Shown here one piece after another: positions 29,415 to 38,024 of a stretch of 64,000 nucleotides of DNA; positions within the stretch are counted from its first letter, which is position 1; the number at the start of each line of letters is the position of its first letter. The notes under the pieces were generated by a model. The model worked only from the letters and a program-made list of their open reading frames with translations, did no database searches and was not told where the DNA came from. Both the position numbers and the translations under genes were made by a program. The DNA comes from Haliotis rufescens. Its lineage: Eukaryota. The stretch lies in assembly GCF_023055435.1 (NCBI RefSeq), contig NW_025963957.1, forward strand, positions 6,572,001 to 6,636,000, in the 5' to 3' direction.

Positions 29415-30152
29415 TGTTTTTGTTTTGTTTGCAGTAATAACGTAACACTCAGCAATTTTCCAGCTATATGAAAGCAGGCTGTAAATAATAAAGTCTGGAC
29501 CAAACAATCCAGCGATTGATATTGTGAACAACAATCCACACCATTTGGGTACAATGACATGTATCAACCAAGTCACCGAGCCTGACCATCTGATCCTGTT
29601 AGTCACCCCTTACAACTAGCAAAGATTGATGGGACGTATGGTAACTTGGAATACCAACAGTATAAACATGAACATATGCATTAAGCAGAAGTGATATCAG
29701 CAACTAAAGAAATAAAAGAGATAACACTGTCTTCTTGTACACATACGATAATGTCATTTCGCAAGCATGACACAGAAGGACAATATTTTGTTTTGCGAAC
29801 AAATGTTTACAATTTGTTGGGCAATATGTCTTACCGTGAATGTGTCTTTGCCAAATCTTCATCCAATGGATGACCTTGGTGACCCCATTCTTGTGATGGC
29901 TAAAACATAAATATTTCCTTTTTCAAACCGGGGGAATAAAACAAATGAAGCTTTTAATTTGATTTTATTTGTTGTTGAACACCGCAGTTCAGTTAAATGG
30001 CGGTGGTCTGTAAATAATTGAGTCGGAACCAGACAATCCAGTGATTTACATCATGAGCATTGATCCACACAATTGGGATATGAAGACATGCATCAACTCA
30101 GTCAGCGAGCCTGACCACCCAATCCCCGAAGTCGCTGTTTACGACAAGCATG
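29415..30152 (-). mobile_element. Two 5'-truncated SINE family A copies (about 29415-29620 and 29965-30152)
   Basis: Core ctgtaaataat.gagtctggaccagacaatccagtgattgacatcatgagc is shared with other family A copies. Confidence 0.75.
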
Positions 30153-30189
30153 TAGTTATTTGTCATCACTTATTTCATGACCCGTAAAT

Positions 30190-30430
30190 GACCCGTGAAG
30201 ATCCGGGGTAGAATAGGTCTTCAGCAACCCATGCTTGCAGTAAAAGGCGACTAACGGGATCAGGTGGCCAGGCTCGCTGACTTGGTTGATGCACTGTCAT
30301 CGATCCCAATTGAGTGGATCGATGCACATGATATCAATTACTGGATTGTCTGGTCCAGACTCGATTATTTATACAGACCGCCGTCATATAGCTGGAATAT
30401 TGCTGAGTGTGGCGTTAAACAACAAACCCA
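30190..30430 (+). mobile_element. SINE family A, full length
   Basis: GACCCGTGAAGATCC... through ...GCTGGAATATTGCTGAGTGTGGCGTTAAACAACAAAC. Confidence 0.85.
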
Positions 30431-30464
30431 AAAAAAATTCTTTCATGCAGCAGCAAGCTAATTG

Positions 30465-32615
30465 TCATGATGGGCGTGCGACATAATGGGGATGAGACAT
30501 GATGGGGTGTGACATGATGGGGGTGATACATGACGGAGGGGTGACATGACGGGGGTGTGACATGATAGGGGTATGACATGACGGGGGGGGGGGGTGTGAC
30601 ATGATGGGGTGCGACATGACGGGGGGGGGGGGGGGTGACATGATGGGGGTGCGACATGACAGGGGTGCGTCATGATGGGGATGCGACATGACGGGGGGTG
30701 ACATGATGGGAATACGACATGATGGGTGTGTGACATGATTGGGATGTGACATGATGGGGGGGGTGCGACATGATGGGAATGCGACATGATGGGGATGCGA
30801 CATGATGGGGTTGCGACATGATGGGGATGCGACATGAAGGGGGTGCGTCATGAGGTGAGGTGAGGTGAGGTGAAATTGGGTTTAACGTCGCGTCCAAGAT
30901 TATTGCACTTATATAGCGACGTGCATGCACGTGTATGTGTGTGTGTGGCTGCTTGTACTAGTCCGGACTGATGCCGATTTATAGTGCTAGCTCACTGAGA
31001 TACCATGCTGCAGTTTAACATGAATACCCCACTCAGACACAGTATACTGACTCCGAGCCGACCAGTCCTTGTTTTAGCCCCTTAATGCCGAGCGCCAGAC
31101 AGGGTAACAACAAGTACAATCTTTTCACGTCTTTTTGTATGACGCGGCCCGGGATCAAACCCTGGACCTTCCGCTCTCCGGGCGGACGCACTACCACAAG
31201 ACCACGGAGGCGGTCGGGTGCATCATGATGGGGATGCGACATGATGGGGATGCAACATGACGGGGGGTCGACATGATGGGGGGTCGACATGACAGGGGTG
31301 CGACATGATGGGGTGTGACATGATGGGGGTGCGACATGACGGGGGTGCGACATGATGGGGGTGCGTCATGAAGGGGGTGGGACATGACGGGGATGCGACA
31401 TGAAGGGGGTGCGACATGATGGGGGTGCGTCATGAAGGGGATGCGACATGATGGGGGTGTGACATGACGGTGATGCGACATGACGGGGGTGCGTCATGAA
31501 GGGGATGCGACATGATGGGGGTGGGACATGACGGGGGTGCGACATGAAGGGGGTGCGACATGATGGGGGTGCGTCATGAAGGGGATGCGACATGATGGGG
31601 GTGGGACATGACGGGTGTGTGACATGACGGGTGTGTGACATGATGGGGGTGCGTCATGAAGGGGATGCGACATGACAGGGGTGCGTCATGAAGGGGATGC
31701 GACATGATGGGGGTGTGACATGATGGGGATGCGACATGTTTGGGGTGTGACATGATGGGGGTCTGACATGATGGGGGTGGGACATGATGGGGGTGCGACA
31801 TGACGGGGGTGTGACATGATGGGGATGCGACATGATGGGGGTGCGTCATGAAGGGGGTGGGACATGACGGGGGTGCGGTATGAAGGGGATGCAACATGAT
31901 GGGGGTGCGACATGATGGGGGTGTGACATGATTGGGGTGTGACATGACGGGGTTGCGACATGATAGGGATGCGACATAATGGGGGTGTGACATGACGGGG
32001 ATGCGACATGAAGGGGGTGCGACATGACGGGGGTGCGACATGATGGGGGTGCGTCATGAAGGGGATGCGACATGATGGGGGTGTGACATGACGGGGATGC
32101 GACATGACGGGGGTGCGTCATGAAGGGGTTGCGACATGATGGGGGTGGGACATGACGGGTGTGTGACATGATGGGGATGCGACATGATGAGGGGGGGGGG
32201 TGACATGACGGGTGTGTGACATGATGGGGGGTGTGACATGATGGGGGGGGTGACATGACCGGGGTGCGACATAATGGGGATGCGACATGACAGGTGTGTG
32301 ACATGATGGGAATGCGACATGAGGGGTGTGTGACATGATGGGAATGCGACATGATGGGGGTGTGACATGATGGGGGTGCAACATGATGGGGGTGAGAAAT
32401 GATGGGGGTGCGACATGATGGGAATGCGACATGACGGGTGTGTGACATGATGGGAATGCGACATGATGGGGGGGGGGGGTGACATGATGGGAATGCGACA
32501 TGATGGGGGTGTGACATGATGGGGTTGAGAAATGATGGGGGTGCGACATGATGGGGGTGAGAAATGATGGGTGTGTGACATGATGGGGGTGCCACACGAT
32601 CGGGGTGCCACATGA
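30465..32615. repeat. G-rich minisatellite with an approximately 16-bp unit (GACATGATGGGGGTGC variants)
   Basis: More than 100 degenerate units; it produces the spurious SHPHHV/TPPSC ORFs. Confidence 0.92.
30854..31215 (-). mobile_element. SINE family C, full length with tRNA-derived head, inserted in the minisatellite
   Basis: A-box TGGTCTTGTGG and B-box-like GGTTTGATCCC on the minus strand; (CACCT)n tail; flanked by gggtgc(g/a)tcatga. Confidence 0.85.
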
Positions 32616-35374
32616 TACAACAGACAATCAATGATGCAGCAACTTGGACACTTGTGATCGCCATCATCATCACAATCTGTACATATCCAAATTGGGACAA
32701 AACAAAAGAGTAAACATTTCATTGTAATTTCTACCAACAGTACTATAATCCATGGTGTCAATCTCATAAAATACTTCCTCTCCATGACCTCAGTTATTGC
32801 ATTTTTAAGCAAACTCACTGGAAGAAATCTGACATGATATTCACCTGTTTGTGAGTCTTGCTGTTGGAACATCTTGATGCCCGAGAACACCTCCACATTG
32901 CAGTGTTTCCCCTGTATGGGGCCGGCATATCTCCTAGGCCAAGGACATCTTTGCACAGGGAACACAAACGGGTCTTTGTTGATCATATTGATGGCAATTA
33001 TGAAAGTTCTTCTGTTCGATTTGTGGAAGATGGTGTAAAGACAGTTCTGTGTTGTAAATATCTTATCACCCAAAAAGGCTGGGAAATGTTTCAGCCTGCT
33101 CAAACTGTTCTGCCTTGTGTGTAATGAATGTCCTCTTGTATGTGACATACTTTTAAAGATGTCCATATAACGCCCAAATGTGTGGAGCCCTGTTCTTCCC
33201 TAGACCACTGTCCGAGTTGCTGGTACTACTGGCGGAACCTGGTGGTGCTACCATCTTCCGTCTGTAGGCCTGAAATTAAGATTCCACTTGAAATCTGTTT
33301 GAAAATTTGTTTGTTGTCTTATAGAAATAAAGAGTCAACTGACATACATGTTTCACAGTCAACCTCATCTCACTTGACCTTCACTCCAGCAGATATACAG
33401 TCTGCATGTTTAATTGGTCCTTCCAGGAAGCAAGACGTTCTGACACTGGGTCTGGTGCCTGAATCACCACTGGCGAGGTAGCAAAATACTCCTGAAAGTA
33501 GCAATTTCTAAAACTAAGTAACTTCCCGACTGTGCCAGAGCTAGAAACTAATAGCTTTAGTCCACTAGTCCTAATGATAACATAAAACAAAACCCTTGAA
33601 AAGGGCAAATGTCTCCTGGTCCTTACGCTACCTGATCTATTGGGCAGTTGGGCAAGAATTACAGGACTGGAGCTAAGTCCTAATCTCGGAACATAACGTC
33701 AGAGATATTTGAATCCAAAAGTAAGGAAGACTTATTTCAGGCTTCTGGAGCAAAGTTCATGATGTGCATGGGATCATGTGTTCTATAAATAGAACATGTC
33801 ACATGCTTTATGTTAAAATTATTATGTGACAACCCATGTTCAGTCAAGATTGAGCAACAGAAGTATAATTGGCTATAGTAGGATATATAATACAAGTCAT
33901 ACAATTGACACAGGCAAATTCATTTTTCTTATCGCATTGCAACACAAGTTTTCACCGTTTCTCAGGCAGCCAGTGGTGCCATTCAGAGCAGGTGTTGAGA
34001 CATGCAAGTTCTACATAGTCAGTACATCTACATGACAGGGAATATTAAAGGAGATATTGAATGGATGACTCCGACAAAGCAAGATCTAAAAATCAATGCC
34101 CTAGCCCTAAATACCGATATGGCACAAATTTGACCAAAACATGCAACAAGAACCTAAACTTCTGTTCCTAAAAGTACCTGTGATAGAAAACAATGCAATT
34201 GTACTTTTGAGAGTCTCCAAAAATACATTGCGGTACTTATTTGAAAAGACATCAACGAGAAGGCAACGAGACTTACATTTGAAAATGCCACGCGTCCGGT
34301 GCTGACGCTCGCTCAACAAAGAATGAGTTCCATGCAAGGTGGTCACGTGGTGGTTGGGTTTATAGCCGAATCAGCACCGCGTCAAACCGCTGCGAACCGA
34401 AAACGGCACCAAATGCATTGACGAAAACGGCACCGCGTTGCCTCTCGAAAAACGGCTGTGTTTATATGAGTTTGTATCATTGAAAGTATAACATAGGTGA
34501 GAACGTCATATTCTAGTGATGTCTTCTTAAAGAAGCGAAGCCTAACACGCAGCAGTACTTATCTAATTATTTTAAACAATTCGTTTTGTTCTCGTTTCTC
34601 CCAAACCAAGTATTGCCTATGCCAGACATATCACAAGACTACAAGACTACACTGGATTACAAAGAGATTAATACACGAGCATTTGTGTCATACTGGTTTT
34701 ACGAAATGAGTGTCAGTCTTCTTCTAATTCTCGAGCGAGGGAGAGGGTAATACATCGTTTAGTATTCTGTATTTATCAACTCGGTTATTCCTAAGATCGT
34801 TATTTTGACAGGTGGACATACGAGGAGTGGGGGAAAGGTTCCGAGTCTAACTATGATGGACAACGTTGATGGAGTGGGTTGCCAAATATTTTTCAACATA
34901 CTCCCCTCTGAGGCCCACACGGTTCTGACAAGGATGCTGGAGCGCCCGAATCCCACTGGTTTAGAAGGCTTCCTCCTGGTTTCGTGAAAGCAATAACGTC
35001 ATAATCATTTGAATAATGCTTGCCAGGCACTTCTTTCTACAAGTTTGGTAAGGGGTGGAAATCTGACGGTGCTAAATCTGAATACGGAAGATGTTCAATG
35101 AGTTCCAAGGCGCAGTCATGGTCTGACCTTTCGGGAGGTAGTCCACCAGTAGGATTCCTTACAGCTATAGACGGGTGAATCTTGTGTCAATATTTGGAAC
35201 AGGTGTACCGAAGATATATCAAGATGTATATGGTATGGTTGGAAAGCTTGGAATCTAGTTTTCGAAAACCAGCGTTGCCAGACTTGAAAGTGTCAGGCAA
35301 CACGTCTTTTAAGGGCACCTTGGTTGCTATTCTATTTTGGAAAGGGCACTGGTGCTACTACTACACATAATAGG

Positions 35375-35640
35375 ACCCGTGAAGATCCGGGGTAGAATAG
35401 GTCTTCAGCAACCCATGTTTGTCGTGAGGCGACTATGCTTGTCCTCAGAGGCGACTAATGGGATCGGGTGGTCATGCTCGCTGACTTGGTTGATGCATGT
35501 CATCGTGTCCCAATTGCGGACATCGATGATCATGATGTCAAATCTCTGGATTGTCTGGTACAGATTCGATTATTCACACACTGTCGTCAAAAAGCTGGAA
35601 TAATGATGAATGCGGCGTTAAACTACAAAGAAACAAACTC
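35375..35640 (+). mobile_element. SINE family A, full length
   Basis: Same 5' start and tail as the 30190 copy. Confidence 0.85.
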
Positions 35641-37747: not shown

Positions 37748-38024
37748 CAAAGAAAGTGTTATCCCACATATAACTTTTGTGACTGTTCCATGTTAACTGT
37801 GGATGTTTTAAACATATTGTGTTTTGTTGGTTATTTAATTCCGCTCACGGGACGACTCGTCGCCCACAGCAGTGAGACACAGAAAAACAACAATGATATT
37901 AAACTATGAACGGATAAGGGGATACAGTACCCGCAGCTACCACAACCACCTTAACGTGGTGTTCGTTTGTTTACGCCGCTCTCGGCTATATTCAAGCTAT
38001 ATGAGGCTGGTCTGTAAGTAATCG

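Follow-up and report, generated by a model that had tools for sequence, protein, structure and literature searches.

The RNA of an LP-type SINE of Haliotis rufescens is predicted to begin with a covarying H-type pseudoknot, behind which lies a T-loop-like hairpin; the two make up the head of the element. The same RNA module opens several LINEs and lies in the 3' untranslated regions (UTRs) of RNA viruses. We tentatively favour the explanation that this module is a barrier to 5'-3' exoribonucleases, resembling the xrRNAs of viruses and borrowed from the 5' ends of LINEs. That it represents a new structural class of xrRNA, by which retrotransposons would carve their 5' ends from host transcripts and which would have been exchanged among LINE types, SINEs, small RNA viruses and a large DNA virus, we regard as possible rather than probable.

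All nine copies that the original prediction had placed in one family with a common start were found in the window, a 64-kb stretch of H. rufescens DNA, with starts corrected to 35374, 38884, 60897 (previously 60892), 61559 and 63806, together with two older copies (Table 1). The elements are 240-260 bp in length and have a non-tRNA 5' end at a fixed point: the nine copies and the two older ones all begin at GACCCG or a few bases off it, and the sequence 5' of the head differs between copies, with no relation among the flanks. A 21-mer of the head had seven matches in the window against none in 100 shuffles, and a 22-nt hairpin unit is present two or three times in six of the nine copies. The head sequence that had been quoted is a consensus, from which the copy at 30190 departs by GCAG in place of GTCG. 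A 5'-truncated copy (29968-30152, minus strand) faces the copy at 30190 head to head, giving a long inverted repeat. Partial direct duplications, covering 10-48 nt from the start of the element, adjoin its 5' end in the window (30179-30189) and in loci L025 and L063, and look as if they came from template jumps of reverse transcriptase. Other repeats in the window are a tandem array of a G-rich unit of ~16 bp (GACATGATGGGG...) at ~30460-32615 and a tRNA-headed SINE with a (CACT)n end and a Nimb-like tail, at 37967/38024-38187 (plus strand) and 63364-63525 (minus strand).

Table 1. Copies of the LP-type SINE in the window and predicted parts of the copy at 30190.
Feature	Position	Strand	Remarks
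LP-type SINE copy	30190-30437	+	head, body, Nimb-like tail, (CAAA)n end
RNA module (LP head)	30190-30258	+	predicted pseudoknot and T-loop-like hairpin domain; equivalent to 'Nimb-17 homology' in PMC4758252, Fig. S2
S1 5' strand (CCCG)	30192-30195	+	pairs with 30204-30207
S2 5' strand	30197-30203	+	pairs with 30216-30222
S1 3' strand (CGGG)	30204-30207	+	
Pseudoknot L3	30208-30215	+	ends in conserved AGAAUA; invariant columns among homologues
S2 3' strand	30216-30222	+	
Hairpin domain	30228-30258	+	variable closing stem P3, 30228-30230 with 30256-30258
P4	30237-30240 with 30248-30251	+	within hairpin domain; mutated in copy at 30190
3' tail	30375-30422	+	common to tRNA-headed SINE and full-length Nimb-like LINEs of H. 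rufescens
SINE copy	35374-35629	+	hairpin unit twice
SINE copy	38884-39143	+	hairpin unit twice
Older SINE copy	start ~41108	-	
SINE copy	44654-44910	-	hairpin unit twice
Older SINE copy	46227-46521	-	absent from the original prediction
SINE copy	56563-56800	-	hairpin unit once
SINE copy	60616-60897	-	hairpin unit three times
SINE copy	61299-61559	-	hairpin unit twice
SINE copy	62821-63080	-	hairpin unit twice
SINE copy	63596-63806	-	hairpin unit once; internal deletion

In a sample of 40 arbitrarily placed 10-kb stretches of the H. rufescens genome, the LP element gave 65 matches, 26 of which reach its first seven bases (one of these being a LINE head). A stricter, gap-free count of head-bearing copies in the sample gave 20, and extrapolation suggests that 1.33 Gb hold ~7-9 x 10^4 of them. 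The tRNA-headed SINE, with 23 head-bearing matches in the same sample, is about equally common, and the sample does not mark the LP family out as the most abundant SINE of the genome. The last ~45 nt are common to the two SINEs, as originally predicted. One of the 65 matches (L400:5468-5607, minus strand) is a chimera in which a tRNA head is joined to the body, from position 96, and tail of the LP SINE. An absence of A and B boxes had also been claimed: no B box was detected in L022, the sole good copy scanned, and no tRNA was called by ARAGORN within the window, but one A-box-like match occurs at +84. The element thus lacks the combination of tRNA head, A box and B box that defines a tRNA-derived SINE. 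A survey of 62 heads yielded 45 with a tail, of which 16 had a TSD; exactly GA was left before CCCG in seven of the 16, four further ones end in GA and five differ. The terminal repeats are (CAAA)n or (CCAA)n.

By its head, length and architecture the element appears to be an LP-SINE and a member of Hdi_LP. LP-SINEs, named for a LINE-promoter head and ~255 bp in length, were described from abalone, oysters and periwinkle (Matetovici et al., 2016; PMC4758252) and include Hdi_LP, Hmi_LP, Sgl_LP and Lsa_2, alongside the pectinoid MESC SINEs; their first ~70 bp also occur at the 5' ends of Nimb-17_LMi, I-3_DR and RTE-9_CPB. The present element agrees with them in its ~70-nt head, in its length (255 bp in their consensus), TSDs and tandem-repeat end, in a tail common to tRNA-headed SINEs and in a head common to Nimb and RTE LINEs, and the scallop sequences in Fig. 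S2 of that paper have the two domains as well and can be paired in the same way. The available portions of PMC4758252 propose a promoter, note the promoter-plus-ribozyme of L1Tc and leave the partner LINE unnamed, and they contain neither a structure nor viruses, whereas the present analysis adds a covarying fold, copies in viruses, a neighbouring HDV-like ribozyme and a LINE that may be the partner.

Homologues were collected by the 3' core alone, the exact 20-mer core being present in 52 metagenome stretches, an 18-mer in 10 viral stretches and the core with AGAAT upstream in seven MAG contigs. The knot pattern among them consists of the S1 5' strand, one U, a 7-nt S2 5' strand, the S1 3' strand, a loop of 8-17 nt ending in AGAAUA and the S2 3' strand; in the 3' domain, a variable P3 encloses GC-NN, GUCG, U-A-N-R-A-G-G, CGAC and Y-N-A. 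The hairpin domain of the window copy follows the order P3, GC-UU, P4, loop U-A-N-R-A-G-G, Y-N-A, and the SINE starts 2 nt ahead of the S1 5' strand and 6 nt ahead of the linker U at 30196. L3 is predicted to lie in the minor groove of S1. A fixed-geometry knot score was passed by 10 of 44 metagenome, six of eight viral and four of seven MAG contexts; none of 20 chance cores from phages passed it, and shuffles did so at a rate of 1.1% at most. The 34 metagenome contexts that missed this strict score are old or 5'-truncated copies or have longer loops, and the remaining two viral contexts, which have no knot, are chance matches.

Covariation was assessed in 10 sequences selected for equal geometry, six of them viral. 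In this selected set 95.5% of 110 cells were paired, compared with 42-48% in slid controls, the covariation score was reached by none of 500 shuffles, and two-sided changes occurred in nine of 11 pairs (all seven of S2 and two of four of S1). The proposal of a structured, pseudoknotted RNA head was thereby supported for S1 and S2, and the pairing of TGAAGATC with GGTCTTCA proved right. The loop GGGT had been paired with a flanking ACCC; its GGG does pair, but the partner is the 5' CCC, the 3' ACCC being paired elsewhere. A second pseudoknot, GCTT/AGGC, was not upheld, since its positions were paired in 15-18 of 19 score-passing lineages with zero compensatory changes; a 2-bp GC/GC contact is possible in its place. 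Nor can the change in the copy at 56800 be taken as compensatory, as it stands in a single copy, and in seven other copies with GGT/GAT variants ACCC is kept or altered irrespective of them.

Among true copies none turned up with an altered GUC/GAC stem, which leaves P4 unsupported by covariation; a bulge in scallop aside, P4 does not vary among them, partly because it served as query. The loop occurs in the variants AAG, AAA, AUG and ACA. T-loops follow the rule U-N-N-R-A with two extruded bases, and the hairpin loop fits this pattern. Nested folding gave no better energies than shuffles (z -0.7), the program being unable to fold pseudoknots. When the window and 28 homologous loci were searched against Rfam 15, the module matched no described family, in line with the original prediction, and there was no match to hammerhead, twister, twister-sister, pistol, hatchet or hairpin ribozymes. 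A minus-strand hammerhead was rejected by eye (CUGAAGA is there, its GAAA partner is absent), and a hairpin-ribozyme reading of the module was likewise dropped by eye.

In retroelements the module is 5'-terminal. The endonuclease ORF begins directly after it in the RTE-type LINEs L058 and L063, and L062, which we take to be R4/Dong-like, is a module-bearing element without a Pfam match, inserted in (TAA)n. A further LINE with an ORF1, L218, carries the module, and its ORF1 as a protein query led to LINEs of H. rufescens in which the module lies upstream of ORF1 in 19 of 20 loci. In full-length copies ORF1 has a zinc knuckle and ORF2 comprises APE, RT and RNase H, which is the architecture of the I group; the final ~45 nt of these LINEs can be aligned with the tails of the LP and the tRNA-headed SINEs alike. 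Because of this alignment with both SINE families, these LINEs are the likely partner of the LP SINE, as a candidate suggested by sequence; the label Nimb-like is provisional and follows their architecture and PMC4758252. Dense clusters of young Nimb-like LINE copies, some of them inserted in one another, lie in C445 (~31.2-32.1 Mb), C46 (~5-6.8 Mb) and C101 (~8.4-9.0 Mb). The module was absent from 37 weak RTE-like or L062-like loci of H. rufescens, but most of these are partial matches and the absence carries little weight.

Two LINE families, A and B, are 69% identical over the 5' UTR and ORF1. In family A no unit lies upstream of the module in any of 26 distinct scored copies (two more have no S1), and a U stands at -6 in 24 of 25 copies with random bases ahead of it. 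A tail and a TSD call were obtained for 13 of 17 loci; among these 13, exactly U stands between the TSD and CCCCG in eight, the U falls inside the TSD in two, and 3-4 nt are left in three, two of them in local repeats. None of the ten clean TSD calls has an added G. The start U of family A could form a sixth S1 base pair. The start base is G in the SINE and U in family A, each 6 nt before the linker U, with L3 differing by 9 nt; the end of the element follows the fold, and neither a sequence nor the distance to the invariant core. A 5' end tied to the head, as originally proposed, is supported.

In LINE family B a canonical HDV-like ribozyme lies directly upstream of the intact module, its P2 ending at the -6 base of the module. 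It appears to be a genuine ribozyme beside the module and a separate unit from it, with a predicted P1 with a G1-U wobble, P2, P3/L3, P1.1 and C-U-A-A, and scores 25-29 bits with Rfam RF02682, whose gathering score is 44. The unit is present at L431:865-921 and about 30 other H. rufescens loci; it was found in none of 26 loci outside H. rufescens. Among family B copies, collected with a query that did not contain the ribozyme, 29 of 30 start at G1 of the ribozyme, one is cut inside it and none starts at the module; TSDs abut G1 in four of five calls (seven loci). Copies arising by self-cleavage, or from a promoter, at the module would have lost the ribozyme in front of it, and both routes are disfavoured by this distribution, with the caveat that the -6 base lies inside P2 of the ribozyme, which could mask a cleavage site. 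The S2 strands of the SINE (window 30197-30222) are identical at six of seven positions to the P2 strands of the ribozyme in L431, and the knot may be what is left of a ribozyme after loss of its core, or a recombinant. Small-RNA libraries gave 0-53 reads per run on two stretches, those in run X21 being mainly antisense and on the 5' end of family B; such reads do not show 5' ends.

The module was further identified in the 3' UTR of six RNA-virus contigs, and because it is present there it works as RNA. Viral contigs with the module encode an RdRp (L171, L242, L249 and L455), an S-domain coat protein (L118) or a peptidase A21 capsid protein (L144 and L090). In five descriptor-passing contigs the module lies 6, 10, 23, 75 and 101 nt past the last stop, and 27-119 nt separate it from the contig end. 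Tandem copies occur in L118, where the second is cut, and in L455, where two looser ones were read by eye, the one that was scored reaching a score of 6. A fixed stop-codon read-through signal was rejected, as the distance from stop to S1 varies from 6 to 199 nt. Matches to looser viral patterns are mostly due to chance, and variants may be missed by them; among the knot-pattern matches listed (at least 101), only the two L118 copies had pairing at seven of seven positions. One module lies between two genes of a 212-kb DNA-virus contig. Seven bacterial genome records (MAGs, L213-L219) carry it at contig ends or beside microsatellites or other eukaryote-type repeats, in one case with a LINE ORF1, and are likely to reflect eukaryotic contamination of the assemblies. 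L080 is a head-to-tail array of 74-nt units, each exactly one module, within a larger satellite.

Plant-virus class 3 xrRNAs (ST9a, PLRV and SCNMV) combine a pseudoknot with a T-loop and lie in 3' UTRs; they arrest Xrn1 at one position or at two, and more classes are expected (PMC12397905). The module shares with them a small pseudoknotted RNA with a T-loop, a 3'-UTR position and a sharp 5' boundary; by position it is xrRNA-like in lying past the last stop of viral 3' UTRs, often in tandem. In class 3, however, the T-loop sits in the apical loop of one stem-loop that forms a pseudoknot with the 3' end (PMC12397905), whereas the predicted fold of the module opens with the H-type knot and has the T-loop-like hairpin downstream. 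With this different order of elements, the module does not have the J1/2 bulge, apical T-loop and 3' pseudoknot of that class. The xrRNAs of PMC12397905 are all viral, while the module is also found in cellular retroelements. Class 1 and 2 xrRNAs have a three-way junction and a double pseudoknot; the covarying fold of the module is without a three-way junction.

For the exonuclease barrier, we infer the three-dimensional fold, nuclease resistance, read-through transcription and partner LINE as follows. The SINE would be transcribed by read-through within a longer host RNA; after decapping or upstream cleavage, Xrn1 or Xrn2 would degrade the host portion as far as a point ~6 nt ahead of the S1/S2 junction and stall there. 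The remaining uncapped RNA would be reverse-transcribed by the protein of a Nimb-like LINE via the shared 3' tail, and new SINE copies would thus begin at the base of the knot. In family B the upstream ribozyme would leave a 5'-OH end and, because a 5'-OH RNA end is not an Xrn substrate, the copies would keep the ribozyme, which renders the barrier compatible with its retention. By means of the same fold, RNA viruses would retain a stable RNA from the 3' UTR. The element end lies 6 nt from the S1/S2 junction, the site of the conserved U and AGAAUA; this distance is about the footprint of Xrn1 on flaviviral xrRNAs. Against the barrier stand a topology unlike that of class 1, 2 or 3 xrRNAs and the fact that in a plain H-type knot the 5' end is not threaded; a ring around that end cannot be derived from the sequence. 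A base-precise end at the first S1 pair would also be expected of a ribozyme. A barrier would be partly redundant behind a 5'-OH, and that family B keeps the module may hint at a different function. In its near invariance the hairpin resembles a binding or active site, beyond the needs of a barrier, although the searches selected for the hairpin, and exactly GA is left in only seven of 16 SINE TSDs.

The original prediction had suggested that the head may be an unclassified self-cleaving ribozyme. A ribozyme of a new class whose cut falls at the foot of S1, just as that of HDV-like ribozymes falls at the base of P1, we now consider unlikely. Base-precise starts, at U or G, and a near-invariant core would suit it, as would the head-to-tail array of module units in L080. 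Like the HDV-like ribozymes of non-LTR retrotransposons (R2, RTE, R4 and L1Tc Pr77), the module is 5'-terminal, with the element beginning at the base of the first helix, and S1 and S2 share the strand order of P1 and P2 and an A-rich joiner, six of seven S2 bases of the SINE on both strands being identical to P2 of the HDV-like ribozyme in family B. Linear RNA viruses are also known to carry ribozymes in their UTRs, in exceptional cases in the 3' UTR (PMC13725137). However, a cut in the viral 3' UTR would lose the genome end, 27-119 nt past the core, and the family B copies, none of which starts at the module, have the module intact. The would-be cut site has no conserved base (G, U or C), the conserved bases lying at the far end of S1. 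As had been recognized, the head is not canonically HDV-like: it is without P3/L3, P1.1, P4-CNRA and the catalytic C, the S2 5' strand runs straight into the S1 3' strand, the joiner is AGAAUA, and no Rfam ribozyme matches. Self-cleavage of the module is accordingly disfavoured on account of both the family B starts and the viral 3'-UTR sites. An element for cap-independent translation, or for binding proteins or ribosomes, would act like a 3'-CITE in viruses and from the 5' terminus in LINEs, and SINEs would thereby reach the LINE protein at the ribosome; we judge it unlikely, its fixed end being a side effect or needing a second mechanism, but it may exist alongside a barrier. Such a role would not be redundant with the HDV-like ribozyme, whose uncapped product must still make ORF1, and it fits the ORF that starts right after the module in L058 and L063. 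T-loop platforms bind proteins and ribosomes (PMC12397905). The module resembles the 3' cap-independent translation enhancers of Tombusviridae in being a structured 3'-UTR element of a tombus-like RNA, and differs in being also 5'-terminal in SINEs, which are non-coding and yet keep it. Tombus-like viruses do use 3'-UTR enhancers, but to our knowledge the module has no likeness to BTE, PTE, ISS, TED or TSS folds, and we know of no class of Tombusviridae 3' enhancers with its fold. The S1-base start of unrelated SINE bodies and of LINE family A would also be left unexplained.

The two remaining explanations fit worst. An internal RNA polymerase II promoter acting in DNA, as proposed for LP-SINEs (PMC4758252), agrees with a 5'-terminal position in LINEs and SINEs and with the purine first base of the SINE, and has a precedent in L1Tc Pr77, a promoter plus ribozyme (cited in PMC4758252). 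We consider it quite doubtful: the module occurs in RNA viruses with RdRp genes, its covariation is two-sided, family A starts with U and has no added G in clean TSD calls, the distance from start to invariant core is not fixed, and transcription from the module would shed the upstream ribozyme, as seen in none of 30 copies. Less likely still is a hitch-hiking element, like the s2m of RNA viruses, spread by template switching and with no role in forming ends. Its patchy occurrence among LINE types, RNA viruses and the 212-kb DNA virus, and the frequency of partial and tandem duplications, would be expected of such an element, but its position is strict (the 5' terminus of retroelements, past the last stop in RNA viruses) and the compensated stems indicate selection.

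The LP SINE type and its head were already known (PMC4758252). Open PubMed Central papers and bioRxiv yielded no report of the structure of the module, its viral copies, the HDV-like neighbour or the partner LINE, and no paper with the core sequence, whether written as DNA or as RNA. Among the papers listed on xrRNAs in connection with retrotransposons, tombus- or toti-like viruses or H-type knots, and on Nimb elements with ribozymes, none describes this motif, and PMC4758252 is the sole relevant one for LP-SINEs. A structured RNA common to animal retrotransposons and the 3' UTRs of RNA viruses, and absent from Rfam 15, was unexpected. How SINEs without a promoter or tRNA obtain a fixed start has been a question since LP-SINEs were described in 2016, and a candidate for their partner LINE can now be offered. 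Natural variants of the module could serve as controls that separate a barrier, a ribozyme and a translation element. If the module cleaves, it would be a new ribozyme class. If it halts Xrn1, programmed exonuclease resistance would move from viruses to cellular mobile elements, a compact fold for stabilizing RNA would be gained and, beside internal promoters and ribozymes, retroelements would have a third route to their 5' ends.
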